This document shows, one piece after another, positions 9,073-28,480 of a stretch of DNA of 58,078 bases (position 1 is the first letter of the stretch; every line of letters starts with the position of its first letter). The notes under the pieces were generated by a model. The model ran no database searches, was not told the origin of the DNA, and saw nothing but the letters and a program-made list of their open reading frames with translations. The position numbers were made by a program, and so were the translations under genes. Origin of the DNA: an uncultured Candidatus Saccharibacteria bacterium (GTDB lineage: Bacteria > Patescibacteriota > Minisyncoccia > Phycocordibacterales > DSPV01); contig CAZTXT010000001.1 in the NCBI GenBank assembly GCA_964617735.1, positions 78,260 to 136,337 on the forward strand, in the 5' to 3' direction.

Positions 9073-9645
9073 ATGATCGCAAAACTCACCGGCACTGTTT
9101 CGCATCGCGGCAGCGGTTTTGTTGTCCTCGACGCGGGCCCGGTCGGCTACAAAGTCTTCGTCAAAAACGCAACGATGGAGGAGATTGTGAAAGCAGGGAC
9201 ACAACCCGTAACCCTGCTGACCTACCTTGCGGTCAAAGAGAACGGGATGGACCTCTATGGATTCCTGCACCGCGAAACAATGGAATTCTTTGAACTTTTA
9301 CTGACCGTAACCGGCATCGGTCCCAAGTCGGCACTTGCGATACTTAATATCGCGCCCGTCCCGACACTCCAGTCGGCCATCGCCTCCGGCGATCCTTCGC
9401 AGTTGACCAAAACGACCGGCATCGGAACCAAGCGCGCCGAGCGCATCGTGATGGAACTTAAAGATAAATTGGAAGTCGGCGCGGGAGAACTCGCCGTGCA
9501 TCAAGATGCTTCCGACGTACTGGAAGCACTCAAGGCGCTCGGCTATTCGCAGAAAGAAGCGCGCGATGCTCTACAGAAGCTCCCTAAAACCGGAGGAACC
9601 GCGGAAGAGAAGATAAAACAGGCACTCAAAACGCTTGGGAAATAA
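9073..9645 (+). CDS. ruvA: Holliday junction branch migration protein RuvA
   Basis: MIAKLTG, LYGF, VTGIGPKSAL, GIGTKRAERI, ALKALGYS. Confidence 0.96.
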   Translation: MIAKLTGTVSHRGSGFVVLDAGPVGYKVFVKNATMEEIVKAGTQPVTLLTYLAVKENGMDLYGFLHRETMEFFELLLTVTGIGPKSALAILNIAPVPTLQSAIASGDPSQLTKTTGIGTKRAERIVMELKDKLEVGAGELAVHQDASDVLEALKALGYSQKEARDALQKLPKTGGTAEEKIKQALKTLGK

Positions 9646-10475: not shown

Positions 10476-10496
10476 CAGAGCCATATAGGCATTCGG

Positions 10497-10531
10497 GTTG
10501 CACACCATCCTCTTCGCAACGTTACTGCAAG
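10497..10531 (-). repeat. Repeat R6 (leader-distal, degenerate, 35 bp)
   Basis: GTTGCACACCATCCTCTTCGCAACGT--TACTGCAAG: 4 substitutions and a 2-bp deletion versus consensus. Confidence 0.85.
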
Positions 10532-10633: not shown

Positions 10634-10664
10634 GAAAGAAAAAGGCCAGCTCCTGCTGGCCTTT
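10634..10664 (-). terminator. Intrinsic terminator in spacer 5
   Basis: AAAGGCCAGC-TCCT-GCTGGCCTTT stem, T-rich tail on the - strand, downstream of ORF 10690-10899. Confidence 0.7.
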
Positions 10665-10689
10665 CGTGATTGCAGCACTCCAAACTTAC

Positions 10690-10899
10690 CTAAATACCAA
10701 CTTTAGCAAGCTCTTGGGGATTGCGGAGCGTGAGCAGCCGTGCTCGCGAAATATGACCCCTCGCCAACTTTTGAAGTGCTCGAAGTTCAGACTTCTCTAC
10801 AGCGGAAAGCACTGAAGACATCTTTTTGCGTAAAAGGGTTACTCGACGGGCATTCTGCCGTTTCCTGAACTTTGATGTACTACTAGACAAGGTTTGCAT
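10690..10899 (-). CDS. Small basic hypothetical protein (spacer 5 cargo)
   Basis: 69 aa, GAAAGGA SD upstream, terminator downstream. Confidence 0.6.
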   Translation of the reverse strand: MQTLSSSTSKFRKRQNARRVTLLRKKMSSVLSAVEKSELRALQKLARGHISRARLLTLRNPQELAKVGI

Positions 10900-11061
10900 A
10901 TATAATCCTTTCTAATTCAGATGATAAGGATTATTGAATAATTTGCAATGGAGTTATTGGAAGCAAATTCAGAGCGCATGTCAGAGAGGACACTTGCACG
11001 GGGCTTCAAACATAAGCAAGGCATTTCTTAACCTTAAAGAATAGGATTTCGAGGGAAAGTG

Positions 11062-11098
11062 GTTGCACACCATTCTTTTCGCGACGTAGTACTGTAAG
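11062..11098 (-). repeat. Repeat R5 (4 mismatches)
   Basis: GTTGCACACCATTCTTTTCGCGACGTAGTACTGTAAG. Confidence 0.92.
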
Positions 11099-11132
11099 CT
11101 TTTACCGTGCGGTCGCGAGGTAGTGGGCCTTG

Positions 11133-11429
11133 TTAAGAGGGCTTGATAATTCGAGCGCGACATGCGCCAAGAAGCGCCCCCAAGAGAAAGAAGATCGGCA
11201 CTCCAAGAGAAATTTCCAACCAATATGGGGGATAAAAATCAAGAATCTCATTAAGTGCCCAGAAAGGTATCCAGGGAAATGCCAAAGGAATGCACTCAAA
11301 TCCTAAACCGGTGTATCCGGGAACAAAAATGTGGTGCATGCAAGATTCGTATAGAGCGCCAGATATCAGCGAGCTAATTCCCGCAATTGCTCCTCCGCGC
11401 AGCCAAGGTGGCCAAAACTTCCAGTGCAT
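11133..11429 (-). CDS. Small membrane protein (spacer 4 cargo)
   Basis: MHWKFWPPWLRGG..., 98 aa, TM segments; start placed just after a TG-n-TATGAT extended -10. Confidence 0.65.
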   Translation of the reverse strand: MHWKFWPPWLRGGAIAGISSLISGALYESCMHHIFVPGYTGLGFECIPLAFPWIPFWALNEILDFYPPYWLEISLGVPIFFLLGALLGACRARIIKPS

Positions 11430-11435
11430 AAGGTT

Positions 11436-11465
11436 ATCATACCAAAGGTTGTTTATCATTGTCGA
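11436..11465 (-). promoter_or_regulatory. Putative sigma70 promoter inside spacer 4
   Basis: TCGACA-N18-TATGAT with TG extension, 6 nt before the ATG. Confidence 0.45.
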
Positions 11466-11521
11466 CAAGAGTGACTGAAAAGCCGATGCACTAAGCATCG
11501 GCTGTGTGGCTCACGACGCTA

Positions 11522-11558
11522 GTTGCACAATATCCTTTTCGCGACGTAGTACTGCAAG
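11522..11558 (-). repeat. Repeat R4 (consensus)
   Basis: Exact 37-bp match. Confidence 0.97.
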
Positions 11559-12061
11559 TTTACTCATATCTGGTTCTTTCTTTTGGGCGAGCGTGCACGT
11601 CGCCAGGCCATGTTTTTGGAGGTGGAGCCACACAACATCAATGCGGTGCGACTGAACCACGGTTGTGCAATAGTTGTAGCCGCGGACGGTCGTGCCAGGT
11701 TGGCTGAGCGCGTGGCGCGAATACAACCACCGAAGATAAAGATGGAAACGGGAAGAATCTGATCCGACTGAATGCTACAGAGACGGACAAGCAAAAACCC
11801 CAGAACACGGTAAGTTGCTCTGGGGAAGCACCTCGCCAGAAACCAAGTTCTGGGGCTGGGTGAGCGTTGGGGAAATCGGAAGCCCGACGCCATCCAGGAT
11901 TAAGTATAATTGTGGATTCTCGATCGTCAAACCTGGTAGTCTGGGAGTCCTGCGGGTTGAGGACGTTTTTATAAAAATGCATTTTTTGTGAAACAGAAAC
12001 GCCCACTTTGCCGTCTTTGTGAGTAGAGTTTCCGATAAAGTGCGGGAATTCTTCAACATGC

Positions 12062-12736
12062 ATGAAGCGAGAAATCGGCTGGGCGCTCGTGCGCCTTGCA
12101 AAAATGCGCCTCTCCCCGGACGCGTGGCATCACTGGGAGCAAGTGCGCAAAGACTGGGCAATGGTTGCGCGTTTTGTGAGCCATTGCCAAAAGGTAACAA
12201 CGGGATGCCACTGCAATCTCTGGGAGGAGGGCTGCCACTGCGAAGCGGAGGCTGAAGTCCTCGTCCAAGAGACCTTGGTTCGAATAGACACAAAGTTGTT
12301 GCCAAAATGCGAGACGATGGAAGTGTGGAGAATAGGTAATTACGTGGAAGAGATTGCGCGGAACGTGGCTTATGGTGAATTCGCGAAAGCTTCAGCGCAG
12401 AAACGTGGAGGTCGTAAAGGGAAAGAGGGGCGACACCAGCTTCCAGAGCGGATTTCGTATCCCGATGCGGAAGAAAGCGAAGACCAGCGGTTGAATCTTC
12501 CTGTAGTTGCCCTCCCTACGCAGGTTCAAACTGCTTCACTCAAAGAATTCGACCAAAAAGTGCGTCGGTTATATTACGATGGCGTAATCGATGACAGAGA
12601 GCTTGAGGTTTTGAGAGACCTCATGGAAGAGCGTACGCAACGCGAGATTCGAGATCGAAGGCGTATGAGCTTGAGCCGAGTTAACGCATGCTGTAAGAAG
12701 CTGCGGGAGATTCTGCGAATGCATTGGAGTTGGTAA
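12062..12736 (+). CDS. ECF-type RNA polymerase sigma factor-like protein
   Basis: Region 2-like AEVLVQETLVRI, KRGG motif, C-terminal region 4 HTH (RTQREIRDRRRMSLSRVN). Confidence 0.65.
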   Translation: MKREIGWALVRLAKMRLSPDAWHHWEQVRKDWAMVARFVSHCQKVTTGCHCNLWEEGCHCEAEAEVLVQETLVRIDTKLLPKCETMEVWRIGNYVEEIARNVAYGEFAKASAQKRGGRKGKEGRHQLPERISYPDAEESEDQRLNLPVVALPTQVQTASLKEFDQKVRRLYYDGVIDDRELEVLRDLMEERTQREIRDRRRMSLSRVNACCKKLREILRMHWSW

Positions 12737-12755
12737 TTCTCTTCAGCCAGAAAAT

Positions 12756-12784
12756 GCCGCCTGGTTCGAAAGGAACCGGGCGGC
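12756..12784. terminator. 12-bp stem-loop between the sigma and anti-sigma-like genes
   Basis: GCCGCCTGGTTC-GAAAG-GAACCGGGCGGC. Confidence 0.45.
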
Positions 12785-12799
12785 TTACTAATACTTGAA

Positions 12800-13090
12800 A
12801 TGAGCAACTTGAACGCGAAGTCAATAGGCACGGGAACAGTTTGTATTTCGGAAGATGATCTTCTGCTTTTCGTCAGCGAGAACTTCGCTGAAACAAAAAT
12901 GGGCGCGTATGTAATTGCGGAGCACTTAAACCAGTGCCGGAAATGCCGGGACCGGGAGGGTCGGATTCGGGCGCGTTTGCAACATTTATTAACAACCGTC
13001 GCACAGATGCCGAACTGGAAGTGGCTGGATAGCGAGCATTCCGTTTACCGAGAAAAAGGCTGGCTAAAACTCAAGAGGAAGGGCGCGTAA
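12800..13090 (+). CDS. Putative zinc-binding anti-sigma (zf-HC2/ZAS) domain protein
   Basis: EHLNQCRKCR matches HxxxCxxC; directly downstream of the ECF-like gene. Confidence 0.55.
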   Translation: MSNLNAKSIGTGTVCISEDDLLLFVSENFAETKMGAYVIAEHLNQCRKCRDREGRIRARLQHLLTTVAQMPNWKWLDSEHSVYREKGWLKLKRKGA

Positions 13091-13177
13091 AGGAAAGTGC
13101 GGAGCTGGAAGAAAGGGAGCCTGCTCCGGTTTCTCAGGGTGAGTCCGATTGAATTGCTTTCGTAGGACTTGTTCGGC

Positions 13178-13432
13178 TCACTTGACCCGCTTGGCTGCGA
13201 GTTCTGCCTCGTGTAGGACGGTTGAAAGTTCCAGGCGGAGCGCGCCCGAGATCCGAAGCAATGTTTCGAGCGATGGGTTCCGTTGCTCACTTTCGATAAG
13301 GCTGATCATGCCTTGGGAAAGACCAGACATTTCTGCCAGGCGGGTCATGGAAATGTTCTGCTCTTTCCGCTTTTCACGCAATATGCGGGCGACGTGCGAA
13401 CAAACGGATTCGCGATAGCCGATTTTTGTCAC
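13178..13432 (-). CDS. XRE-family HTH transcriptional regulator
   Basis: LREKRKEQNISMTRLAEMSGLSQGMISLIESEQRNPSLETL. Confidence 0.9.
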   Translation of the reverse strand: MTKIGYRESVCSHVARILREKRKEQNISMTRLAEMSGLSQGMISLIESEQRNPSLETLLRISGALRLELSTVLHEAELAAKRVK

Positions 13433-13464
13433 AGTTAAGGGCTACCAAAAAAATCCATTGACAA

Positions 13465-13489
13465 CGGACATTACTATAGTAATAGTCCG
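13465..13489. promoter_or_regulatory. Palindromic operator in the divergent promoter region
   Basis: CGGAC-ATTACTATAGTAAT-A-GTCCG with a perfect 14-bp core palindrome, 1 nt after TTGACA (13458-13463). Confidence 0.6.
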
Positions 13490-13491
13490 AT

Positions 13492-13734
13492 ATGTTCATT
13501 CGGCGTCTTGGCCCGGATCCGCACGCAAACGGGAATCGAACCTTTGCGGTGAAAGGGTGCCCTGATATTTTCGAGCTGGATGGTGGTGATTTCGCGGTTA
13601 TCGGCACGGACATTACTGCGGTGGCCGAGAGCAAATTGCCTCCTTCTGCCAGTTGCGGGGCTGACGAAAGGGTTGTTCGAATACCCCGGAAGACCCTTGT
13701 ATTAGCGAAACCAGACATACCCGACAAGATATGA
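13492..13734 (+). CDS. Small hypothetical protein (CPDIFEL...GDFAVIG motif)
   Basis: 80-aa ORF divergent from the XRE gene; well-formed protein-like sequence. Confidence 0.7.
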   Translation: MFIRRLGPDPHANGNRTFAVKGCPDIFELDGGDFAVIGTDITAVAESKLPPSASCGADERVVRIPRKTLVLAKPDIPDKI

Positions 13735-13767
13735 GCCGCCACTTGCTTTTCGTGTTAAAATGGGCCG

Positions 13768-14223
13768 GTGGAAAGCTGGCTTGCAAAAAACTGGTTCGAA
13801 GCCGTGAGCACAATCGGGATTGTTGCCAGTCTGTTATTTACCGCGCACTCGCTGCGCGCGGAGACAAACTCACGAAGGATCAGCAATTTGATTACGTTAA
13901 CGCACAATCATCGCGAAATTTGGAGCGAATTTTTCAAAAATCCGAAATTGGAGCGGATCCTTACCGGGCAGCCAACGATTTTGGAACGCCCGATCACAAT
14001 CGAAGAAGAAATATTGGTGAATCTGGTCATTCAGCAATTGCAGAGCGTGTTTTACGCCATATCGGACAAGCTAGTACTCAAGCCGGAACAATTGGGCACA
14101 GATGTAAGGGATTTTTTGTCGCTGCCGATCCCCCGCGCAGTTTGGGAGAAGAACAAAACTCTGCAAAATCGCGATTTCGTTTCATTCGTGGCGGAGCAGC
14201 TTCAACCTCGTCGCAGTGGTTGA
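13768..14223 (+). CDS. Hypothetical protein with N-terminal TM (DUF6082-like, tentative)
   Basis: 151 aa, one TM then a helical domain; GTG start. Confidence 0.65.
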   Translation: MESWLAKNWFEAVSTIGIVASLLFTAHSLRAETNSRRISNLITLTHNHREIWSEFFKNPKLERILTGQPTILERPITIEEEILVNLVIQQLQSVFYAISDKLVLKPEQLGTDVRDFLSLPIPRAVWEKNKTLQNRDFVSFVAEQLQPRRSG

Positions 14224-14293
14224 AGCGTGCAAGAAAGGGCTTTTGACTGACTAAAACCATACGGCACAGGGGAGGCAACATATCAGGTGTCAT

Positions 14294-14515
14294 TCACAAA
14301 TCGGCAACAAGATCGGACACTTTAACGTGTAACGCATCGGAGATGCGGAGTAAGGCATGAAGGCTGATCCATTTTTCGCCTCGCTCGATTTTGCCAAGAT
14401 AGACCGGGTGGAGGTTCGCCTGTTCTGCAAGGTTTTCCTGGGTAAGTTTTGCGTGTTTCCGATGCTTCCGAATTGCTTCACCGAGATTTCGTCTTCGTTG
14501 TTGAATGCGCGACAC
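14294..14515 (-). CDS. XRE-family HTH regulator
   Basis: IRKHRKHAKLTQENLAEQANLHPVYLGKIERGEKWISL. Confidence 0.9.
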   Translation of the reverse strand: MSRIQQRRRNLGEAIRKHRKHAKLTQENLAEQANLHPVYLGKIERGEKWISLHALLRISDALHVKVSDLVADL

Positions 14516-14706
14516 AGTCGTTTAGGAGAGCAAGAAGCGCAGGCGGAAAACACACCCCATAGGGGTTCATTTTGTTCTTGCATTTGGGAAGGGTTTTGTC
14601 AGTATCGGCATAGCGTGGGCGATGGTTCAGTCTATTGGCGGCGCTCCACTGGCTGAGTTTCCATCCTTCCGGGAGTTGCATTTAGAAGTCAGCAGAGAAC
14701 TTAATC

Positions 14707-15957
14707 ATGAAAACGAGTAGACCAATTGGGACTTCAGCGGGTCTTTTGATTCTGATAGTAGTGTGGTTTGCGCCGGGAGGACTTGCTCAAGTGAACAGTG
14801 GGAGTGACGGGCGTGATGGCCCACTCGATCCCGGAATATGCCCAGGCGGGGCGTGTAGTGTCGTCATCGACATGCACGATCATCCAGATGGGGTTTATCA
14901 ATATACTGCCGTTAATATGGCTCCTGGAGTTACTGTGACGTTTGTGCCAAATTCGAATAATACTCCGGTTGTTTGGTTGGTGCAGAGCAACTGTGTAATT
15001 AGCGGAGGCGCAACCGTCATTGTGACGGCACAAGGTGGGAGCGGTGGGTCAGGTGGGGCAGGAGGGCCCGGTGGATTTCGCGGAGGCAATGGAGGAACGC
15101 TTAGCGCTGGAGGAATGGGGCCTGGCGGGGGATTGGCGGGCGGCTACGTTGGCGGCACTGGATCATATGGAATGTTTGGCACGAATGCCGCGGGGACTAC
15201 TAATGGAGATGGAGCTATCTATGGAAATCAATTTCTGCTGCCCCTGGTTGGCGGTTCCGGTGGGGCTGGCTCAATGGGAAGTTGTAGCACCATCGCCTTT
15301 GGCGGCGGGGGCGGCGGGGGAGCGCTATTGATTGTCGCGTCCGGAAGAATCCTGCTGGATGGGAGTATCGAGGCATGCGGTGGTCCAGCATGCGGAGGAT
15401 TTTACGCCTGTCCTGGAGGATTCAGCACGAATATCGCGGGAGGTGATGGCAGCGGGGGGGCGGTGAGGCTAGTTGCCTCACAAATTCTTGGCAGCGGCAG
15501 CATCTATACCGGTCGCTCAGGAAGCTATTGCGGTGAGGCCAGTTTTGGAGGTTTAGGAAGAGTCAGACTTGACTCCCCGGATTTAAACTTCGGTGGAATA
15601 ATTACGGCTGTAGCAAGTCAAGGATTCCAGCCGATAATTATTCCTTCACAAGGGACAGGTGTTCAACTAGCGATTGCAAGCATTGGCGGAGTACCGGTTT
15701 CTGCGTCTCCAACTGGACAACTTGCAACTCCTGACGCTGTGCTCTCCAGTCAGCAGAGCAACCCTATTCCCATCGTTGTGAATTGCTCGAATATTCCGTT
15801 AAACACGCAGATCACGGTGGTAGTCAGGCCAGCTACTGGCCCGGCTGTAAGCGCGACAGGACTCAACAACACTGGGACGCTCTTGGCGAGCACGGCTACC
15901 GTTTTGCTTAATATGCCGCGAGGCGGGGGAATCATTTACGCAACTGCAGCAAACTAA
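14707..15957 (+). CDS. Secreted glycine-rich protein
   Basis: Signal peptide, SGSDGRDG, long G-rich tracts, C-terminal beta-sandwich-like region. Confidence 0.8.
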   Translation: MKTSRPIGTSAGLLILIVVWFAPGGLAQVNSGSDGRDGPLDPGICPGGACSVVIDMHDHPDGVYQYTAVNMAPGVTVTFVPNSNNTPVVWLVQSNCVISGGATVIVTAQGGSGGSGGAGGPGGFRGGNGGTLSAGGMGPGGGLAGGYVGGTGSYGMFGTNAAGTTNGDGAIYGNQFLLPLVGGSGGAGSMGSCSTIAFGGGGGGGALLIVASGRILLDGSIEACGGPACGGFYACPGGFSTNIAGGDGSGGAVRLVASQILGSGSIYTGRSGSYCGEASFGGLGRVRLDSPDLNFGGIITAVASQGFQPIIIPSQGTGVQLAIASIGGVPVSASPTGQLATPDAVLSSQQSNPIPIVVNCSNIPLNTQITVVVRPATGPAVSATGLNNTGTLLASTATVLLNMPRGGGIIYATAAN

Positions 15958-15965
15958 AACGCCGG

Positions 15966-17951
15966 ATGAGGTCTTCGACGCAACTTGGAATAGTTGCAAC
16001 CTTGCTCTTGAAATCGCTCTCGTTATGCGCAGACGAGGTTACTACAAACGCCATGTCGCCTATCGTGAGCTACCAATACCTTAATGCCGTGGATGAGCAG
16101 GGAACAACGCTGGCAAGTCCGATAGTTAGTTTCCAATTCCTGAGCTCATTGGGCGAGGCGGCAACGACAGTATTTAGCCGCATTGTGGGCTACCAGTATT
16201 TGGATTGGGCAGGCAATGACGCGTTACAACTGGAGAGCAGTGATCAGGTGAGCTATTACTATCAATTTCTAAACGTCCCGCCTCTCGTTATTATCCCTAC
16301 GAATCGCACGGCAACTGCCACAGAGGTCAGTCCTTCAGTTGTTCTCCCTGGCCCAGATCCTTGGCAACTCAAGACGTTCACAAATGGCATGCTTAGGACT
16401 AACGTGGCGCCTGATTCAAACTGGATGAGCGTTGTGCTGACCCATGGCTGGAACAGCAGCCCGGAGGCATGGGCAACGAACATGGCACAATTGATTTCTG
16501 CAAACGCTACAACATCGGCGAATATTTTAATTTGGGACTGGACGAGCGCTTCGCAGTCCACGCCATGCCTCTCATTGCAGGCGGATTTCGTTGGAGCGGC
16601 GCGACTGACACCTGACCAAGGATTCGCGTTAGCGATGGCATTGCGCTCGAAATTAGGAACAAATTATTCGCACCAGATTCATTTTATCGGGCACAGCCTT
16701 GGCGCTCTGGTAAACGGATTCGCCGCAATCTACCTCCATCACCACGGATTCGCTCCTACTAACACTCAAATAACAATGTTTGATGAAGCAGAAGTAGCAA
16801 CAGATCTGAGTTGCCCGGAACTCTTGAATGCAGTCCTGTTCAACCAGTGGAATCCTCTTTCGCCGAAGCCATACTATTGTCATCCCCTGCCGCGGCAATT
16901 CGCCTGGGCAGACAACTACATCACTGCGTTCGGGCTTCTGCATCCTGATGCGCACAACGTCATCCTTACGAATGGTTTCCCGGGCAATGCTGCGAACCTG
17001 ATAAACTTGGGTCAGAAGTTAGCTAATTTTCACAGTTACCCTTGCGATTGGTACGCCGAGACGGTTAGCAGTAACAATTCGGCGATGGGGCATCAGTGGT
17101 CGTTTGAGCAGGGCGGATTTTCGGGAGGGCGCGACACGAACACCGTCTTCCGTCAATCGTTTAATGGGTCGCTTTGGAATCTTGCGGAGTTGGATTATGC
17201 TGCTGGCAGCAATTACTTGGCCGGGCGATTTGAGAAGTATCGCGACGCCGTGAAGTATGCTGTTACTAATAAGTCTCCGAGCGCTATCGCCGCAAATGGA
17301 ATTGTGTTCGGCTTCGTGCTTCTTGGGCTTACATTTGACGGCTTCGTTTTGTACTTGCAAACCAGCGCTGCCAGTCCTCAAGTTTCTGAATTCCCCCGCC
17401 AGGGTTCCCACGGGCACGACGGTGGTGCGGGCGGGAACGGGAGCACGGGCGCATGTGCCTGGTTGAGGCTACCGATTCCTGCCGACGGAGTTTCCATCTC
17501 CTTTGATTTCAAGGTTGACGGCGATTGGCAGGATGATTCGCTGGCGGCGGCACTAAATGGAACAAACTTACTTCTACTTGCCGCCAGCCAAGTCGAGACC
17601 AACATTGTGCTCAATAGCGGCCTCATTGATATAAGGTCATATGCTGGCCAAACGAACGAACTCTTTGTCGGAATCGTTGGAGGCACCTCCACGAATGCTC
17701 TGCTGACCGTGGGGAACGTTGCGATCTACACAGCCGCAGTGCCGTCATTGCACGGGGAAGTAAGCGGAAGGGATTTCAACATTTCGTGGCCGCTCACGGC
17801 ACAGAACTTCAACTTGGAATCTACAACCAATCTGGAGCTGATAAATTCTTGGACGGCAGTCACCAACACCCCGGCCATAGTCAATTTCCAGAACATAGTC
17901 ACGAATGACGCTTCCACGGATAGTAGGTTTTACCGTCTAAGAAAGTATTAA
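15966..17951 (+). CDS. Secreted alpha/beta-hydrolase (lipase-like) with C-terminal Verrucomicrobia-style appendage
   Basis: VLTHGW, nucleophile elbow GHSLG; C-terminus ISWP...FNLESTTNL...W...VTN...RFYRLRK. Confidence 0.75.
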   Translation: MRSSTQLGIVATLLLKSLSLCADEVTTNAMSPIVSYQYLNAVDEQGTTLASPIVSFQFLSSLGEAATTVFSRIVGYQYLDWAGNDALQLESSDQVSYYYQFLNVPPLVIIPTNRTATATEVSPSVVLPGPDPWQLKTFTNGMLRTNVAPDSNWMSVVLTHGWNSSPEAWATNMAQLISANATTSANILIWDWTSASQSTPCLSLQADFVGAARLTPDQGFALAMALRSKLGTNYSHQIHFIGHSLGALVNGFAAIYLHHHGFAPTNTQITMFDEAEVATDLSCPELLNAVLFNQWNPLSPKPYYCHPLPRQFAWADNYITAFGLLHPDAHNVILTNGFPGNAANLINLGQKLANFHSYPCDWYAETVSSNNSAMGHQWSFEQGGFSGGRDTNTVFRQSFNGSLWNLAELDYAAGSNYLAGRFEKYRDAVKYAVTNKSPSAIAANGIVFGFVLLGLTFDGFVLYLQTSAASPQVSEFPRQGSHGHDGGAGGNGSTGACAWLRLPIPADGVSISFDFKVDGDWQDDSLAAALNGTNLLLLAASQVETNIVLNSGLIDIRSYAGQTNELFVGIVGGTSTNALLTVGNVAIYTAAVPSLHGEVSGRDFNISWPLTAQNFNLESTTNLELINSWTAVTNTPAIVNFQNIVTNDASTDSRFYRLRKY

Positions 17952-17981
17952 CTCACCGCAGGGGCTCAGCGGCAACCGCCG

Positions 17982-18392
17982 CTAGTCGTGGAAGATGGTA
18001 GCCAAAAACGGTATGGCGACCAAAGAGACAAAGAGATCAAGCACGACGGCTAGAAAGATGCCGAAGGCAATTAGTTTTAGGATTATTTGGAACTGGGCTC
18101 GCGGCGGCTTCTGGTTGATTGTGGCTTCTGTGGATGGTTGATGTGAAGTGCTTGGCCTGGATCTTGTCTGATCTTGGGTTGGACGCAGGAATAGGAGAAT
18201 CAGTATAGAGCCGACAATTAGAATACCTGATAGAAGGCCACCCCGTATCATAACCTGCATTTCTGCCATGATATCGTCGGCAGGTTGCGGCATAAAGACG
18301 ACATATGACAGTATTATAGCGCCAACGAAGGAGCCTAACGTGATGGCAACGTAAGAAATGTAGCGAATAATGTGAATCAAGGCGTTTTTCAT
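17982..18392 (-). CDS. Three-TM hypothetical membrane protein
   Basis: 136-aa ORF with hydrophobic segments. Confidence 0.6.
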   Translation of the reverse strand: MKNALIHIIRYISYVAITLGSFVGAIILSYVVFMPQPADDIMAEMQVMIRGGLLSGILIVGSILILLFLRPTQDQTRSRPSTSHQPSTEATINQKPPRAQFQIILKLIAFGIFLAVVLDLFVSLVAIPFLATIFHD

Positions 18393-18529
18393 ATGTCTTG
18401 TTGTCTTGTTGCGCAGGGGTGACCATTATTGTACCCGAAATTAGTTTCATAAAAAAGCCGACGTTGTGGACGTCGGCTGTGTTGGCTCAAAGCATCCGTT
18501 GTAGGAGGCCTGTGAGCAGCAAAATAATA

Positions 18530-19171
18530 TTAGGCAAGTCGAGCACGTGCCGTGCGACAGTGGTGCTCGTCCAGTTCAATGAGGACGAACTTGCGATGAG
18601 CAGCCCTGGCGGCAACACCAGTGGTGCCCGAACCTGCAAACGGATCTAGCACAATATCGTCTGGTTGCGAGAATGCTTCGATCAGCGGCAAAAGACAAAT
18701 CACCGGTTTTTCCATTGGGTGAAACTCATTTCCTGTGTATTCCCAATCGAAAACGTCATCTGGCGGATAGGCCGGCCTCAGCGGTTTGCCTTTGGCCAGG
18801 AGGAATGCTACTTCGTGATAGCTGCGAGTGTAGCCCTCGCGTGAACAATAGTCTTTCACCCAGATCAGATGACTGACCGGACGAAACCCCACCTGTTTCC
18901 AAACGTGCATAAACCGATCAATCCAAGGCCAGCCATAAAAGCTGGCGCAAAATCGGTCGGGCTTAAGCACGCGATGAATCTCGTGAAATGCCGGCCGCAA
19001 CCAATGATTGTTGTCATCGTTGGCGCAACGCCGACCGTCGCGAGCAACATACCTGGTTAGGTAAGGTGGATCGGTGAGCACTAAGTCAACACTTGCGTCG
19101 GGCATCGTGCGCAGAACGGAAATGCAATCGCCGTGAATGACCTGGTTAAGGAAGCTATCGATGGTTTGCAT
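18530..19171 (-). CDS. Orphan DNA methyltransferase (N6-A/N4-C, beta class)
   Basis: Motif IV TDPPY precedes motif I DPFAGSGTT; HPMEKP. Confidence 0.92.
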   Translation of the reverse strand: MQTIDSFLNQVIHGDCISVLRTMPDASVDLVLTDPPYLTRYVARDGRRCANDDNNHWLRPAFHEIHRVLKPDRFCASFYGWPWIDRFMHVWKQVGFRPVSHLIWVKDYCSREGYTRSYHEVAFLLAKGKPLRPAYPPDDVFDWEYTGNEFHPMEKPVICLLPLIEAFSQPDDIVLDPFAGSGTTGVAARAAHRKFVLIELDEHHCRTARARLA

Positions 19172-19185
19172 GTTAAGCCTCCTTT

Positions 19186-19473
19186 TCAGTAATCCTCAGG
19201 CAACAGCACTGTTGTGACAGACCGATCAGCTTCGGTGATAAGCCAGAACTTCGTGCCGTTCTGTGCGTGATATACGGAAAGCAAACGGAAGCCTTCTTTG
19301 AGTGAAAGGTCATTTTCGCTTCTGTCATCTTCACTCACGTCGCCCCAATCGCCAGCCTGGTGCCGTTGAATGGCGACCAGGATGTCTTGGTTTGATACCT
19401 TTCCAAGCGCATTTGGGGTGGCCACAATCCTGCCAAGCCGTAACCGAGCAATGGGTGGTTTGTGAGCGCTCAT
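19186..19473 (-). CDS. Plasmid/ICE-associated conserved small protein
   Basis: LGRIVATPNAL...RHQAGDWG...RLLSVY...WLITEADRSVTTVLLPEDY, a family I recall from mobile-element leading regions. Confidence 0.75.
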   Translation of the reverse strand: MSAHKPPIARLRLGRIVATPNALGKVSNQDILVAIQRHQAGDWGDVSEDDRSENDLSLKEGFRLLSVYHAQNGTKFWLITEADRSVTTVLLPEDY

Positions 19474-19799
19474 AAGCCGAAGTCCTCCATTGCCGAGGCA
19501 ATGGCGTCTTCGTCATCGCCAAGGATTTCCACCAAACCTGCTTTTAACGCTGCCTTGTCGAGGTCGGGTCTGGCCCCCTTGGGACAAGCAGGGCAGCGGA
19601 TAACATCGAGAATTGAGGCACCGAACTCATAACCGGCCGCTTTGAACTGCTCGCGATACCGCCCCGAAAGCCGTTTGGCGACGGGTAGGGAGCGCCAAGC
19701 TTCGGCTTCAGCATGGTCGACGGTCGTTTCGAAAATGGCATCGTGCCGGAGGTGATAGACATCCCACGGCTCATTGCATGATGAACAATGAACATCCAT
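19470..19799 (-). CDS. Hypothetical protein with CxxC pairs
   Basis: MDVHCSSCNEPWD...CPAC; overlaps the next gene by 4 nt. Confidence 0.7.
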   Translation of the reverse strand: MDVHCSSCNEPWDVYHLRHDAIFETTVDHAEAEAWRSLPVAKRLSGRYREQFKAAGYEFGASILDVIRCPACPKGARPDLDKAALKAGLVEILGDDEDAIASAMEDFGL

Positions 19800-19814
19800 A
19801 CGCGTGCTCCTTTC

Positions 19815-20490
19815 TCAGTTGTAGAAGTAACCAAGCTGTCGGAGCGAGCAATGGTTGGGATTGCCAATTATGACATGATCGAGGACCTCAATTTTAAGAA
19901 GTTGGCCCGCGCGAATGAGGTCTCGCGTGACTTTGATGTCTGCCTCTGATGGTTGCGGCTCACCGCTAGGATGATTGTGCATGAGCACAACGGCCGCTGC
20001 CGCCGTGATTATTGCGACCCGGAACACCTCCCGTGGATGGACGAGGATTGTATCGAGCGTGCCGATGCTCACCATCTGATGCCCTTTCACACGCCGGCGT
20101 GTGTTAAGCATGAGGACAGCGAAACATTCGCAGTCCGGCATGAAATACGGATTTGTGGCGATATGGGACCGCCAATAATCGGCAGCGTTCTCTGGAGTTT
20201 CGCACAAATGCATTCCCTCCGGCATGGGGCATTCGCGCAATGTGATTACTTTGTATTCCTTGGCCGGCGGGATCGGTTTGGGATCTGCCGGGGCCTCCTG
20301 CAATTCGAGAGTTGAGGCGGGAACGATTGCATACTTATCCCTGGGGTCATTTCGGGATCGGTGCGTTGGCGCACCGCAAGGATGTTGCCAGCAACGGCGC
20401 CCGGCATTCCAATGGAAGCCAAGATCTTTCAGTTTATCGCGGATTTCCTTGAGTGGCGCGACCGAAAATTCGAGCCACACCCATTTGCCG
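19815..20490 (-). CDS. RadC/JAB-domain protein, 5'-truncated at the repeat
   Basis: VHPREVF, HNHPSG...PSEADI, LDHVII; the frame runs into repeat R3 with no native ATG. Confidence 0.85.
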
Positions 20491-20527
20491 GTTGCACAAT
20501 ATCCTTTTCGCGACGTAGTACTGCAAG
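20491..20527 (-). repeat. Repeat R3 (consensus)
   Basis: Exact 37-bp match. Confidence 0.97.
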
Positions 20528-20591
20528 AACAATCACCGATTTGCTGCAATCTCGATAACGGATAGGAAAGGGCCTGGCAAAAGTTGCAAGC

Positions 20592-20621
20592 AAAAAGGCA
20601 ACGAGAAGAACGCGTTGCCTT
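20592..20621 (-). terminator. Intrinsic terminator in spacer 2
   Basis: AAGGCAACG/CGTTGCCTT 9-bp stem with a T run on the - strand. Confidence 0.55.
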
Positions 20622-20651
20622 CGTGTGAGTCCTCTGCGAACCCTATCTGCA

Positions 20652-20828
20652 TCAGGAAATGCCGAACTTCGCAATCGTAAGCCGGAAGTTTCGTGAGGGC
20701 TTTACCCTGGCATGATTCCGAAGGGATAGATTCAAGGATTCCGAGATCCTGCGGACCTTTTCTGCCATACTTTGGACCTCTCGAATCTCTGACAGAGTCA
20801 AGGATTGTTTTGAGTGTAGTTTATTCAT
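20652..20828 (-). CDS. Small basic hypothetical protein (spacer 2 cargo)
   Basis: MNKLHSKQSLTLSEIREVQ..., 58 aa, followed by a terminator. Confidence 0.35.
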   Translation of the reverse strand: MNKLHSKQSLTLSEIREVQSMAEKVRRISESLNLSLRNHARVKPSRNFRLTIAKFGIS

Positions 20829-21197
20829 AATGGTAAGCCAACAAAGCAAGTGAGAGGCCGTCTCTAAAGGGTTGCCGTACGCAATTATAGACATTTGAAT
20901 GAACCGTGTTCTCCAAAGAGGAACTTGGACAGGCCTTCTGCATCCTAGACATTCCTCCTTTGCTTTGCTGATGGTACCAAATTAGTCCGATTCTGTAAAT
21001 CGGCTTTGGGGTATTGTGCCCATCACAGAAAGCAGGCACACTTTGTCCCCGCCTGGTACAGCTTTGAGACAAACAGACTTGGAACCGCTCAAAGAAGACC
21101 CCGAATCCTTAATTGGCGGAAGAAGGAGTAAAGGGCTTCCACAGCCGCCGCTGCGCCAACTTAGACGTGATAGGTATTGCGTGGTTCCGAACTGACA

Positions 21198-21234
21198 GTT
21201 GCACAATATCCTTTTCGCGACGTAGTACTGCAAG
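21198..21234 (-). repeat. Repeat R2 (consensus)
   Basis: Exact 37-bp match. Confidence 0.97.
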
Positions 21235-21335
21235 GTAAGGGGCCTTTCGGGGGCTGTTATGTTGACGATCAGATCAAATTTGCCGTCACCGTCCCACGGG
21301 CGGTTGACACGCCTGAAAATCTGAAGAGGACCATA

Positions 21336-21629
21336 ATGGTTGAGAGCTTGAAGGCTCAATTGGAATCCTTGCGTGAATCACGACGCGAGAGGGATGAAGC
21401 CGCCGAGATTATCAGGAATGCTTTTAACGAGGTGAGTACCATCAACAAGGTGGCGAATGCGTTTAATACTATGCATCACCAAATGAAAAAGGAGAAAGAA
21501 GAGGCGGCACGGAAAGCAGCTCAAGAAGAACGATTGACCCCTGAGCAAACAGAGGAATTTGTAAAGGAGGCCCTGCAACAAGTTGATAAGCTCTTCCTCG
21601 CCTTGACGGACCGATACTTGCCTAAATAG
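21336..21629 (+). CDS. Coiled-coil hypothetical protein (spacer 1 cargo)
   Basis: GAGGA SD then ATG 21336; 97 aa, charged and helical. Confidence 0.65.
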   Translation: MVESLKAQLESLRESRRERDEAAEIIRNAFNEVSTINKVANAFNTMHHQMKKEKEEAARKAAQEERLTPEQTEEFVKEALQQVDKLFLALTDRYLPK

Positions 21630-21657
21630 AAAAAAGGGGTGCCAGTGGGCACCCCTT
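21630..21657. terminator. Terminator between convergent spacer 1 ORFs
   Basis: AAGGGGTGCC-AGTG-GGCACCCCTT with an adjacent A run. Confidence 0.7.
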
Positions 21658-21691
21658 GTCGCGCGACTGAGCCAAGAATTCCGACCCGCAC

Positions 21692-22132
21692 TTATAACCT
21701 CATTGTGGGCGACGGCGACCCACCGCAGAGCTGTTCGAATTCCTTAGCGGCTTCGTCACCTACCTCCTGTTCGGATGGCGGCTCAACGTAAATCTCGGCG
21801 CAAAGCCGTTGGAAGGTTTCTTGGTAAGACCTGAAGAACTCGGGGTGGCGCCGCATACCGTTTCGCAGCAGATCCTTGATGAATCGGCAACAGGCCTGTT
21901 GCTGCTGATGGTGAAGTTCGCAAATCTTACTTACATGCGAAAAACTCACATGACTCTCCAACTGACGGCGGGCTTCTTCCCTGCAGACAGAGGAGACGAG
22001 CTCACCAAATTGACGCCGTTCGTCCAGCGACAAACGAGGGAGCGTGAGTAAGAAGAGGCGCTTCCACGCAACTTCTCCCTGACTGTCATTTGAGTTCGGG
22101 GTCAGTAGCGCTAATGATTGGGAACTAAGCAT
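21692..22132 (-). CDS. Hypothetical helical protein (spacer 1 cargo)
   Basis: GAAAGGA SD then ATG 22132 (MLSSQ...); 146 aa. Confidence 0.65.
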   Translation of the reverse strand: MLSSQSLALLTPNSNDSQGEVAWKRLFLLTLPRLSLDERRQFGELVSSVCREEARRQLESHVSFSHVSKICELHHQQQQACCRFIKDLLRNGMRRHPEFFRSYQETFQRLCAEIYVEPPSEQEVGDEAAKEFEQLCGGSPSPTMRL

Positions 22133-22250
22133 AGTTGAATTCCTTTCGTTGGCTGATTGGCAGTGCAGAACTCCGCGTACACCATGCACGTGGCGTTCTG
22201 TCTGCCAACCGAGGTTTCTCTGCTTAGTACCGCCCCCTCCATCTTTCGCC

Positions 22251-22278
22251 ATTATATCACGCCTATAATCTATGTCAA
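22251..22278 (-). promoter_or_regulatory. Consensus sigma70 promoter inside spacer 1
   Basis: TTGACA-N16-TATAAT on the - strand. Confidence 0.75.
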
Positions 22279-22524
22279 GAGTATTACAGCCTGACTAAAA
22301 AGCAGAGATTTGCTTGCTGACAGTCTGGGCAGAAGGCTAACTGTCCGGTCTGCGGCCATGCACGACATTCATTCGCGGATGGAGTTTCGCGTCAGCCTGT
22401 TCGTCCTCGCCGGTGAGAACCAACAATGCGATTGGGTAGAAGCGTTCATCATCAAAAACGGAGTGTGCGTCGCGCGGACCGGATTACCATCGTTCTTAAT
22501 ATGACGCATAAGCACGCTGATCGA

Positions 22525-22561
22525 GTTGCACAATATCCTTTTCGCGACGTAGTACTGCAAG
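22525..22561 (-). repeat. Repeat R1 (leader-proximal, consensus)
   Basis: Exact 37-bp match, 38 bp from the cas2 stop. Confidence 0.97.
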
Positions 22562-22599
22562 AGCCAGCAATTTAAGGATTGCCTTCTGAATTTACTTGA
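22562..22599 (-). promoter_or_regulatory. Putative minimal CRISPR leader (38 bp)
   Basis: The only sequence between the cas2 stop and the first repeat. Confidence 0.5.
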
Positions 22600-22881
22600 C
22601 TAAACGATCTCGTATGGTTTTCTATTGCGTGTAATGGCATAGGAAACGTCGTGCCGTTTGAAACAATCTGCGCACAAGACAACTACATGGTACTTATCAT
22701 TGCGACCGTTGAAAATATTTTTCATTTTATTTTCAAATTCAAGTCGTTCGTTTGTACTTATTGGCCCCGAAAATAAATTGCGATGAAGCGAAATAAGTCC
22801 ATAATCAGCACACACAGTCCGCGCCCGTTCTGCCTTTCGAGCATTCTTTGCAAACCATAGTACTATAGAACCCGAATTCAT
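22600..22881 (-). CDS. cas2: Cas2-like protein (divergent)
   Basis: 93 aa directly after cas1; DYGL...LFSG...D...VVLCADCFK aligns by eye with Cas2; the N-terminal YDI motif is replaced by WFA. Confidence 0.75.
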   Translation of the reverse strand: MNSGSIVLWFAKNARKAERARTVCADYGLISLHRNLFSGPISTNERLEFENKMKNIFNGRNDKYHVVVLCADCFKRHDVSYAITRNRKPYEIV

Positions 22882-22892
22882 CCTATTGATAT

Positions 22893-23894
22893 TTATAAGA
22901 GCACAGAGAAATCTATCGACAAGTAGGAGGTCTGATTTCCCAGAAAACATCGACTCAAAACACGGTTCTGCTCTAAAATGACATCTCTTAGCGTTCGGCG
23001 TTTCCCCTTCCAAAATATCCTCTGGTTCAGACGATTTAACACACCTTCAACTACCTTGGCCTTCCCTTCTGGAGAAAGACGGTATTCATCTTTGCTTATT
23101 TTTTCAAAATCACTACGCTTGCCGAGTTTTTTCTCTATGAAGAGCGGAATGATCGCGGAATCCACGATTGGAACTCGAAATTCCTCAACAAGGTCAAGCA
23201 CCAAAGCCGGTTTACCGTAGCGGTCGGAGTGGTATAAACCCAGATAGGGATCGAGTCCGACATAGAGGCACGCGCGTTCGACTTCATTATAGAGAATTCC
23301 GTATCCGTAGTTGAGTGCGCTGTTGAATTTGTCACGTCCTTGTGGAACACGACCAGGAAATTTATGCAGACGTTTCAAACAGTCCCAGTATTTATCTGCT
23401 ATAAAACCCTCAGTCCCCAGTAGCTGGTTACGGGCTTTTTCTCCACCTGGGATTCCCCAGATATTCTGTAGTAAAGTCTCGGCTTGCACGATTTCTTTTC
23501 CAAAATCCTTGCCGTATTTTGCCGAGAGGAATTTAAGGTATGTGATCTGATTGCGACATTTTCCATAAACAAATTGTTTTGCCAACTCGAATGATCGAAT
23601 CGGATCACTAGATACGACAAGTTGACCTCGACGCATTGTTGCTAACCCCTTCGAATCGCTCGAGAAAATTCTTCCAACAGGTTTTCCGAATGACCCGAGA
23701 TAAACAATGTCTACTTCATGCTCGATAGCGAGCCGGACGGCATGCGTAGAAATAGAAGAGGGTCGCAGGATTACAATTTTATTCAGACGCCGGATGGGAT
23801 ATTCCTTGCGCTTTTTCGTTTTCGGAAATCGCAGAGCGATACGTTCACCAGTCGATCCTATAAAGGTGCCGTATGTATCAATGAGTAGGTCCAT
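22893..23894 (-). CDS. cas1: CRISPR-associated integrase Cas1
   Basis: LLGTEG, NSALNYGYGILY, GLDPYLGLYH, LVLDLVEEFR; catalytic E/H/E present. Confidence 0.96.
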   Translation of the reverse strand: MDLLIDTYGTFIGSTGERIALRFPKTKKRKEYPIRRLNKIVILRPSSISTHAVRLAIEHEVDIVYLGSFGKPVGRIFSSDSKGLATMRRGQLVVSSDPIRSFELAKQFVYGKCRNQITYLKFLSAKYGKDFGKEIVQAETLLQNIWGIPGGEKARNQLLGTEGFIADKYWDCLKRLHKFPGRVPQGRDKFNSALNYGYGILYNEVERACLYVGLDPYLGLYHSDRYGKPALVLDLVEEFRVPIVDSAIIPLFIEKKLGKRSDFEKISKDEYRLSPEGKAKVVEGVLNRLNQRIFWKGKRRTLRDVILEQNRVLSRCFLGNQTSYLSIDFSVLL

Positions 23895-23924
23895 AAGAAT
23901 TTCTCTTAAACCTATAACAGGCCA

Positions 23925-23952
23925 ATATTAACACAGATAAGAATAATGTCAA
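23925..23952 (-). promoter_or_regulatory. Putative cas1-cas2 promoter
   Basis: TTGACA-N16-TAATAT with TG extension, 30 nt upstream of cas1. Confidence 0.55.
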
Positions 23953-23989
23953 CATACGGCTTCCCAGCAAATCACGCTAGTATGGAGCC

Positions 23990-25255
23990 ATGGATTCGAT
24001 ATTGCGTTTGGGGCGTACGATTATCCCTCGAAAACTTTTTGTCGCGCTCCAGCCGACCTACCACTATCTGCTCGCATGGGGCGCGGCAGTGATCTACGGT
24101 TTTCCTTCCCAAAAACTCAAGATCGTCGGGATCACTGGTACTAAAGGAAAAACTTCGACTGCCGAACTGACCGCAAGCATTTTAGAAGCCACGGGCTTCA
24201 AAGTTGCCCTCGCGGGGACGCTTCATTTCAAGATCGGTGACCATGAGGAGCCGAATCTTTTTAAAATGACGATGCCGGGACGCTTTTTCATGCAACGATT
24301 CCTGCGGCGCGCCGTCGACGCGGGATGCCAGTGGGCAGTACTCGAGATGACGAGCGAGGGGGCGCGGCAATCCCGCCACGCGTTCATCGAGCTTGATGCA
24401 CTCATTTTCACTAACCTCTCCCCCGAGCATATCGAATCGCACGGCTCGTACGAAGCGTACCGAGACGCCAAGCTCAAGCTCGCGCGAGCGCTCGAACAAT
24501 CGCGAAAAGAGAGGCGCGTGATGCTCGCCAACGCCGACGACAAAGAAGCCCCGCGATTCCTCGCGGCCAAAGTCCCCCGCAAACTCACCTTTCAGTTACG
24601 CGATGCAGGCGCGTATCAGCTCACCGACCATGGCGTTTCGCTCATCTATAAAGGAGAGCGGATCAGCTCTCCTCTGCGCGGCCTCTTCAACATCTACAAC
24701 ATCATGGCCGCCGCGACGTTCGCGGAATCCCAAGGCATCCCACCGGAGATCGCGAAAAAAGGCATCGAACACATAACGGAGATCCGCGGCCGCGCGCAAG
24801 AGATAGCAGCCGGACAGGATTTCACCGTCATCGTTGACTATGCGCACACCCCCGATTCGCTGCGCGCGATCTACGAAGCATTCGAAGGAAAGCGAAAGAT
24901 CTGTGTGCTCGGCAGCACCGGCGGCGGACGCGACACGTGGAAGCGCCCGGAGATGGGAAAGATTGCCGATGATTCGTGCGACAAAGTCATCCTCACCAAC
25001 GAAGACCCCTACGACGAAGATCCCGAAGGGATCATCAAAGAAATTGCATCGGGAATGAGCAAACAAAAACCGGAGATCATCATGGATCGCCGCGCAGCCA
25101 TCGCGCATGCGCTCTCTTGCGCTCGCACATCTGACGCAGTGATCATCACCGGCAAAGGCACCGACCCCTACATCATGGGCCCGAAAGGCTCCAAGATTCC
25201 GTGGAGCGATGCGAAAGTCGCAACAGAAGAACTTAAGAAAATGAGAGCAGTATAA
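23990..25255 (+). CDS. murE: Mur ligase (MurE-like UDP-N-acetylmuramyl-tripeptide synthetase)
   Basis: GITGTKGKTST, EMTSEG, FTNLSPEH, VDYAHTPD, NEDP, GKG. Confidence 0.88.
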   Translation: MDSILRLGRTIIPRKLFVALQPTYHYLLAWGAAVIYGFPSQKLKIVGITGTKGKTSTAELTASILEATGFKVALAGTLHFKIGDHEEPNLFKMTMPGRFFMQRFLRRAVDAGCQWAVLEMTSEGARQSRHAFIELDALIFTNLSPEHIESHGSYEAYRDAKLKLARALEQSRKERRVMLANADDKEAPRFLAAKVPRKLTFQLRDAGAYQLTDHGVSLIYKGERISSPLRGLFNIYNIMAAATFAESQGIPPEIAKKGIEHITEIRGRAQEIAAGQDFTVIVDYAHTPDSLRAIYEAFEGKRKICVLGSTGGGRDTWKRPEMGKIADDSCDKVILTNEDPYDEDPEGIIKEIASGMSKQKPEIIMDRRAAIAHALSCARTSDAVIITGKGTDPYIMGPKGSKIPWSDAKVATEELKKMRAV

Positions 25256-28111: not shown

Positions 28112-28184
28112 TCCGCCCACCAGGGATCGAACCTGGGACCTTCTCCTTAAAAGGGAGCTGCTCTACCAGCTGAGCTATGGGCGG
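28112..28184 (-). tRNA. tRNA-Lys (anticodon TTT)
   Basis: CCGCCCA acceptor, loop CTTTTAA, GGTTCGATCCC. Confidence 0.93.
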
Positions 28185-28360
28185 GTATTTAATTTTCCTA
28201 GTGCTACCAACCGCTGTTGTGACGTCGAGCCATCGACCTGCCAGAACAGCTATGGCGGATATTTAGTTTTCTCACTGCTACCAAGTACTGTTATGGTGTT
28301 GAGCCATCGACCTGCCAGAACAGCTATGGGCGGGTATTTAATTTTCTCGGCGCTATCAAA
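28173..28360. repeat. Tandem repeat, about 2.5 units of 74-75 bp, each containing the tRNA-Lys 5' end
   Basis: Units start at 28173, 28248 and 28322 with AGCTATGG(G)CGG.TATTTA.TTTTC; GAGCCATCGACCTGCCAGAAC is shared. Confidence 0.85.
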
Positions 28361-28480
28361 ACACCCAGGGACACTTTAAAACACAAAAACTGTAACAGAT
28401 TTTTCTCGTATCTGCAAAAACTTGCGTTTATGCAAATCAAGGTTATGCTCTAAGAAGAGGCCTTTCAAAAAGATCATTTT

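Follow-up and report, generated by a model that had tools for sequence, protein, structure and literature searches.

A putative stand-alone CRISPR adaptation operon with a variant Cas2 and kilobase-sized inserts between its repeats

Introduction

According to the prevailing view, control of spacer length is built into the Cas1-Cas2 integrase of CRISPR systems, and adaptation modules exist to feed effectors. The closest described systems to the locus presented here are the adaptation modules of class 1 (types I-B, I-D and III, with 37-nt repeats), and among their relatives the Cas1 of A. fulgidus (4N06) and the Cas1-Cas2 complex of Synechocystis (7CR6) are structurally solved. In solved complexes the N-terminal domain of Cas1 contacts Cas2 and brackets the prespacer. 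Here we describe a cas1-cas2 pair with an adjoining array of 37-nt repeats from an uncultured Candidatus Saccharibacteria bacterium (assembly GCA_964617735.1). The pair lies in a stretch of 58,078 nt (contig CAZTXT010000001.1, positions 78,260 to 136,337), which was analyzed as a whole and is called the window; positions given without further label refer to it. The genome amounts to 763 kb on three contigs and is 99.99% complete with 0.31% contamination. With moderate confidence we assign the locus as a putative functional stand-alone CRISPR adaptation operon, belonging to a distinct Cas1-Cas2 lineage descended from class 1 (I-B/I-D-like) modules and operating with no interference partner.

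The locus and its close homologues in other genomes, referred to as the clade, are similar to class 1 modules such as L044 in the cas1-cas2 order, in the Cas1 family scores and the Glu/His/Glu (E/H/E) site, and in the ferredoxin fold of Cas2 with its CxxC motif and hydrophobic C-terminal tail. Also shared are an array that lies downstream in the same direction and the decay of the distal repeats, and the 37-nt clade repeat ends with ...TTGTGCAAC, resembling the outgroup ends ...ATTGAAAC and ...ATTGAGAC. In contrast, clade loci carry no effector, Cas4 or Cas6, have nearly no leader (2–40 nt) and hold inserts of 140–8932 nt compared to 35–40 nt in the class 1 modules. Their Cas2 exhibits a W-x-T-R-N motif and is devoid of YDI and QxSxFE, and their Cas1 differs at 32 clade-specific positions, mostly N-terminal.

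Three further systems invite comparison. Casposases are likewise Cas1-family integrases found in association with kilobase-sized DNA and target duplication, and casposase 6OPM matches the window Cas1 with an E-value of 1.5e-26. Casposons, however, are bordered by terminal inverted repeats, have no Cas2, mobilize their own DNA and usually encode a family B polymerase, whereas the clade has a conserved Cas2, no inverted repeat copies and unrelated foreign inserts with arbitrary ends. Of the casposon hallmarks, neither terminal inverted repeats nor the absence of Cas2 was found at the window locus (PolB was not specifically searched). In the type I-E system of E. coli, Cas2 is reportedly needed as a structural bridge while its nuclease site is dispensable for spacer acquisition. 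The clade is comparable insofar as its Cas2 conserves the fold and tolerates different residues (E/Q/R/S/I/F) at the acidic position; E. coli, in contrast, has retained the residue and has spacers of fixed length, whereas the clade family has dropped the motif and its insert length is unconstrained. Integrons offer a functional analogy only: there, too, gene-sized DNA gathers between repeated sites at a chromosomal location adjoining an integrase gene. The clade differs by the absence of a tyrosine recombinase, by sites that are CRISPR-type repeats duplicated on insertion, and by inserts that cut genes and show no common orientation in the window.

Results

The identity of Cas1 was established over its full length by profile scores far above the cut-offs, with 225.6 bits for Pfam Cas_Cas1 (PF01867, cut-off 22.3) and 229.6 bits for TIGR00287 (cut-off 71.7). 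None of the subtype-specific NCBIfam models reached its cut-off, and the best PADLOC model was Cas1b. The closest PDB sequences belong to A. fulgidus Cas1 (4n06, E 1.8e-33), Synechocystis Cas1 (7cr6) and casposase (6opm). A preliminary description of the stretch, made from the sequence alone, had stated that the E/H/E triad is kept. This is indeed the case: E162 (codon 23409–23411), H222 (23229–23231) and E237 (23184–23186) align with the corresponding motifs of 4n06. No substitution of these residues, or of D234 and E238, occurs in 39 clade members, and 20 outgroup Cas1 sequences conserve them too. The clade-specific conserved residues concentrate in the N-terminal domain (residues 2–92), which holds 22 of the 32.

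The small protein encoded directly downstream of cas1 and beside the array required more indirect evidence. Its ATG is located 11 nt past the cas1 stop, nested in a longer 137-aa frame that starts with TTG and overlaps cas1; homologues start there too, with M-N-x. Pfam Cas2 (PF09827) scores 21–22.3 bits and thus stays under the gathering cut-off of 23.8, PADLOC reports a Cas2 match with E 1.3e-7, and no NCBIfam model matched. Searches with the single 93-aa sequence gave nothing significant in the PDB (E 0.62) and only the protein itself in a word-indexed database. Since these searches were uninformative, an alignment of the clade was needed (A2), comprising 26 Cas2 orthologues taken from the open reading frame (ORF) directly downstream of clade cas1 genes. 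The five best PDB sequence matches of the A2 profile are all Cas2, and its comparison with a profile of 11 canonical outgroup Cas2 proteins by hhalign resulted in 96.8% probability (E 2.9e-10). The monomer model obtained with AlphaFold2 (AF2; predicted local distance difference test 85.6, predicted TM-score 0.73) exhibits the order beta-alpha-beta-beta-alpha-beta, and roughly the top 30 PDB matches of this model in Foldseek are all Cas2, with TM-scores of 0.65–0.73. Model, structure search and profile comparison therefore agree on a ferredoxin-like Cas2 fold, the absence of which would have spoken against the preliminary description.

Profile alignment confirms the motif replacements proposed there, WFA for YDI and HRNLF for QxSVF, by pairing W9-F10-A11 with Y-D-I and H33-R34-N35-L36-F37-S38 with Q-x-S-V-F-E. 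The QxSxFE motif is consequently lost, with H33, N35 and S38 at the Q, S and E positions, while D, Q, S and F of the YDI/QxSxF motifs are invariant in the 11 canonical relatives. That Cas2 lacks its catalytic acidic residue, as also claimed, is correct for the window protein (F10 at the Asp position) and does not hold as a trait of the clade: this position is occupied in A2 by E in 13 of the 26 sequences, by Q and R in five each and by S, I and F in one each, never by D. Near-invariant in A2 are W9 and N13 (W-x-T-R-N), C24, G28, L29, G39, E45, C70-x-x-C73 and E91 of the C-terminal phi-E-phi-phi tail; the window protein keeps C24, G39, C70-x-x-C73 and a C-terminal Y-E-I-V. Because the nearest canonical Cas2 also has the CxxC motif, the hydrophobic tail and the Gly that follows the aromatic residue of beta2, the clade-specific change is concentrated in the beta1/alpha1 loop and beta2. 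As judged from these alignments, the variant Cas2 has clearly gained a conserved basic W-x-T-R-N loop, with the motifs of the nuclease site lost. The missing acidic residue fits a purely structural Cas2 and is not in itself informative on length.

With E≤1e-10 as the limit, an exhaustive HMMER search over 1.84 billion representatives returned 71 proteins, and the family amounts to about 70 clusters at 50% identity. YDI and QxS are both missing from all of the best 66 matches. Sequences with YDI / IQxSxF appear first at rank 67 and form the majority from about rank 77, so that the distribution is bimodal with few intermediates. By this measure the variant Cas2 is a discrete family travelling with one Cas1 clade. 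Of the 36 clade loci, 32 have an intact cas2 behind cas1. In the unsaturated group L016–L019, the ratio of nonsynonymous to synonymous substitution rates (dN/dS) is 0.04–0.07 for cas1 and 0.16–0.46 for cas2; outside this group the proportion of nonsynonymous differences (pN) is far below the saturated synonymous one (pS). Both genes are, on these substitution ratios, under purifying selection.

The repeat behind cas2 occurs in six copies, four exact (starting at 11522, 20491, 21198 and 22525) and two decayed (11062 and 10497), and no further copy was found elsewhere in the genome. Counted from the cas2 side, the inserts measure 1290, 670, 8932, 423 and 530 nt. The array is polar, the four cas2-proximal repeats being identical and the two distal ones decayed. 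Inserts cut through genes and contain convergent and opposed ORFs with no common orientation. For the newest insert (insert 1), no donor could be matched in phage or plasmid collections. Rfam gave no CRISPR direct repeat, trans-activating CRISPR RNA or other match, and the repeat RNA is not more structured than its shuffles. Several ORFs traverse the repeats (20982–21359 and 22369–22560 on the minus strand, 20224–20565 and 21177–21629 on the plus strand), so that the peptides YYVAKRILCN (one strand) and VAQYPFRDVVLQ (opposite strand) recur. Such ORFs arise mechanically from calling across repeat copies, and gene-calling programs could be misled by them.

To what extent the module has an interference partner was examined on all contigs. 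Neither Cas4 nor an effector gene is located beside the cas1-cas2 module, and the genome carries a single cas1. In a six-frame search of the genome, no Cas9 (TIGR01865), TnpB/Cas12f-type (PF07282), RAMP (PF03787), Cas10 (TIGR02578) or DevR-type Cas7 (PF01905) was detected; the search did not extend to Cas13 and type IV. Cas3 gave matches to generic helicases only, all of them below threshold. The Cas12a model TIGR04330 matched none of the control genomes, so that a positive control is lacking for this model. A run of the 40 largest ORFs, treated as a pseudo-alignment, against PADLOC and Pfam was uninformative, since UvrD-helicase families took up the output. A short-spacer array of ordinary period was absent from every contig. 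Hence neither an effector of the searched families nor a normal array with the same repeat, both of which would have contradicted the preliminary description, was found genome-wide, and of the features of a complete CRISPR-Cas system neither the effector module nor spacers of roughly 25–50 nt were found. The same holds for 11 other genomes with this Cas1 clade, in which no interference partner was found apart from a genome of 4.4 Mb, where an unlinked Cas3 and a second, weak cas1 occur. The early reading as an adaptation-only module, with no effector families and no short-spacer array, is thus supported in this genome and in those 11.

Cas1 homologues at 58–75% identity are numerous and mostly labelled Patescibacteria. 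The survey of the clade covers 36 loci, segment measurements were taken from 16 of them, and the clade in the Cas1 tree comprises 28. A repeat-profile search revealed a homologous 37-nt repeat (CCTGCA...GTCGCAAAAAGGAnnTTGTGCAAC) directly behind cas2, the first copy starting 325–394 nt past the cas1 end in the clade relatives and always in cas direction. In the 16 measured loci, 45 inter-repeat segments span 140–8932 nt with a median of 1429, and none is spacer-sized. Two further loci, one of them from a DPANN archaeon, show the long-segment layout with diverged repeats, giving at least 18 independent loci with this architecture across bacterial and archaeal phyla. Across 47 junction pairs no conserved motif or inverted repeat was found at the insert ends, and the profile search of the 36 loci yielded no minus-strand repeat copy. 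In comparison, outgroup loci (Cas1 identity ≤36%) have canonical Cas2 and 35–40-nt spacers with a period of 66–78 nt; L044, from the sister Chloroflexota lineage, is a complete type I-D/III-B locus with 36–39-nt spacers. In the Cas1 tree the loci with long inserts or a single repeat are united in one clade of 28 (Shimodaira-Hasegawa-like approximate likelihood ratio test 97), which is sister to the Chloroflexota lineage, and the transition from short spacers to long inserts is a single change. Misassembly was rejected as the origin of the layout because numerous assemblies show it independently of each other, among them an 876-kb chromosome in a single contig. A full-text literature search found no description of effector-less Cas1-Cas2 arrays with kilobase spacers.

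Of 401 genomes sampled evenly over the phylum, a single one carries the variant Cas2. Insertion contexts differ and include the inside of a ribosomal-protein operon, a site beside tpiA/pgk and the one between ruvA and murE. The cas1-cas2-repeat unit is rare, patchy and evidently mobile between genomes. At L001:10001-15663 (labelled Adlerbacteria), the unit lies with one 4.2-kb insert between rplE and rpsH, co-directional with them. A 4.6-Mb genome (L033/L036, both on contig CAVYRH010000003.1) contains four cas1 matches; at L036:9951-11105 a 5'-truncated cas1, cas2 and the short downstream gap occupy the position of a "spacer" between two repeats of the array. A further locus (L020:3038) has a repeat 7 kb upstream of cas1. 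It seems that the unit itself can undergo capture or duplication.

Discussion

A lineage in which both proteins are under selection, with no effector and no spacer-sized inserts, challenges both prevailing ideas, the built-in ruler and the adaptation module as supplier of effectors. For the putative operon the following course can be proposed. Cas2 would serve only as the structural bridge of the Cas1-Cas2 integrase, and the integrase would attach long double-stranded fragments by their 3' ends at both borders of the cas2-proximal repeat. As in ordinary spacer capture, the repeat would then be duplicated by gap repair, with no fixed prespacer length. The loss of length control would most likely originate from a co-evolved platform of Cas2 and the Cas1 N-terminal domain, or else from missing end-trimming partners and a lack of length selection imposed by an effector.

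The preliminary description had suggested that altered Cas2 surfaces may release the length constraint. The association behind this idea stands, as the variant Cas2 co-occurs with inserts of 0.14–8.9 kb in every clade locus examined and canonical Cas2 with 35–40-nt spacers in each of the outgroup loci. The attribution to Cas2 does not follow from it: effector loss and the 32 Cas1 clade-specific residues fall on the same branch as the Cas2 change, and because this is one evolutionary event, Cas2 cannot be singled out as the cause. A remodelling of the Cas2 / Cas1 N-terminal-domain platform as a unit is supportable from the comparison of sequences, and a release specific to Cas2 appears plausible. 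With a canonical type I-D sister at hand for comparison with the variant Cas2 and Cas1 N-terminal domain, the question of the ruler is directly testable. More far-reaching, and in our estimation possible but doubtful, is the proposal that the remodelled Cas2 and the co-evolved Cas1 N-terminal domain form a predicted end-capturing integrase that does not measure its duplex. It would take up DNA at the 37-bp repeat in lengths from 0.1 to at least 9 kb and would archive or capture DNA in genome-reduced symbionts instead of serving RNA-guided immunity; a canonical sister platform would restore spacers of about 35 bp. If the two proteins truly place kilobase DNA at a 37-bp site, they would be of interest as a compact tool for insertion of large DNA and as a route of gene flow into ultra-small symbionts.

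Several points weigh against a stand-alone operon that integrates long DNA. Canonical Cas1-Cas2 complexes measure prespacers, and we know of no biochemical precedent for a Cas1-Cas2 complex that integrates kilobase DNA in a concerted manner. The effector search covered a limited set of families, with Cas13, type IV and undescribed effectors outside its coverage. In addition, the Cas4 model PF01930 gave one marginal match, a 286-aa solo PD-(D/E)XK nuclease (C1:481787-482647, L108:2288-3148) at a distance of 380 kb from the cas locus, with 55 bits for PDDEXK_1 and 23 bits for Cas4. As a generic solo nuclease that is unlinked to the locus it was not adopted as Cas4. An equivalent exists in one other clade-carrying genome (G001), and the nuclease could act in trans on DNA ends.

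Perfect direct repeats around each insert would also be expected from a single crossover with a repeat-bearing circle. The inserts could accordingly enter by recombination at the repeat, either by such a crossover or site-specifically, or by host repair at nicks made by Cas1, with Cas1-Cas2 only providing or maintaining the site. The truncated unit between two repeats in L036 and the upstream repeat in L020 indicate that repeat-bounded units can move. We nevertheless regard this explanation as unlikely, since donors of diverse origin would have to carry the lineage-specific 37-nt repeat, which occurs nowhere else in the genome, and the layout is exclusively linked with one Cas1-Cas2 clade. Furthermore, no other recombinase recurred beside cas1-cas2 in three different genomic contexts or in the window, although no formal comparison of neighbours across all loci was made.

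Compared to this, it is still less probable that the cas1-cas2-repeat unit is mainly a selfish, casposon-like mobile element and the inter-repeat DNA the cargo or debris of its successive insertions. The element would have to do without terminal inverted repeats and, in all loci, without minus-strand repeat copies, and in the window no repeat or duplication is found on the cas1 side. Cas2 is present and conserved, and the inter-repeat segments are unrelated foreign fragments, not copies of an element. These findings stand against the unrelated insertion sites across genomes (ribosomal-protein operon, tpiA/pgk, ruvA-murE), the rare and patchy occurrence in the sampled phylum, the multiple copies in the 4.6-Mb genome and the third rank of casposase 6opm among the PDB sequence matches, all of which speak for a selfish element.

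A decaying remnant of an ordinary class 1 locus, with effectors deleted, Cas2 drifting, the array broken by unrelated insertions and Cas1-Cas2 inactive, is very improbable: the lack of an effector in the genome searches, a Cas2 under the Pfam cut-off without the catalytic Asp and the reductive character of genomes of the Candidate Phyla Radiation are in line with it, whereas the recurrence of one architecture in at least 18 independent loci with 0/45 segments spacer-sized, the purifying selection on Cas1 and Cas2, a discrete Cas2 family with conserved motifs of its own, four identical proximal repeats and invariant catalytic residues of Cas1 contradict it.

Genomic Context and Further Features of the Window

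The preliminary description had placed only 95 bp between cas1 and murE, which is accurate with cas1 starting at 23894 and murE at 23990 (Table 1). Directed towards cas1, a promoter-like site of the form TTGACA-16-TAATAT with an upstream TG lies at 23952–23925 on the minus strand. No terminator was found in the 38-nt gap between cas2 and repeat 1. In a genome of the same genus, ruvA is followed by a gap of 390 nt and murE, and the cas block is absent; the end of ruvA and the promoter region of murE align to the window, and no repeat-like site was found at this ruvA-murE junction. Given this site without the cas block, the block of about 14.3 kb (9646–23989) is an insertion in the window lineage.

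Table 1. Coordinates of the cas1-cas2 module, its repeats and inserts, and the flanking genes in the window.
Feature	Position	Strand	Description
cas1	22893..23894	-	333 aa; Pfam Cas_Cas1, TIGR00287, PDB sequence matches, invariant catalytic residues
variant cas2	22600..22881	-	93 aa; hhalign, AF2, Foldseek, family alignment A2
cas1-murE intergenic region	23895..23989	.	95 bp; promoter-like site for cas1 and conserved murE promoter region
gap from cas2 stop to first repeat	22562..22599	-	38 nt; only "leader"
repeat 1 (cas2-proximal)	22525..22561	-	37 nt, exact copy; in cas direction CTTGCAGTACTACGTCGCGAAAAGGATATTGTGCAAC
insert 1	21235..22524	.	1290 nt
repeat 2	21198..21234	-	exact copy
insert 2	20528..21197	.	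670 nt
repeat 3	20491..20527	-	exact copy
insert 3	11559..20490	.	8932 nt; carries genes, including RadC, N6/N4 DNA methylase and others
repeat 4	11522..11558	-	exact copy
repeat 5	11062..11098	-	4 substitutions
repeat 6	10497..10531	-	4 substitutions and 2-nt deletion; AT>CC common to repeats 5 and 6
ruvA, left flank of inserted block	9073..9645	+	Pfam RuvA_N/HHH_5/RuvA_C
murE-type Mur ligase, right flank	23990..25255	+	Pfam Mur_ligase_M/C

Between ruvA and the repeat that has decayed most lie 851 nt, largely taken up by an ORF of 268 aa (9669–10475) with no Pfam match. Because it is absent from the empty site of the same-genus genome, it belongs to the inserted block, and it may represent an old insert that has lost its outer repeat.

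Outside the block, the gene for the lysine transfer RNA tRNA-Lys(ttt) at 28112–28184 adjoins two pairs of exact 24-nt direct repeats, 74–149 nt apart (window 28112–28400, C1:106432-106581), which look like a partial duplication of the tRNA region, e.g. an att-like scar. Between 44000 and 46000 the G+C content drops to 0.355–0.40 compared to about 0.51 in the rest of the window, and this stretch may be another foreign island.

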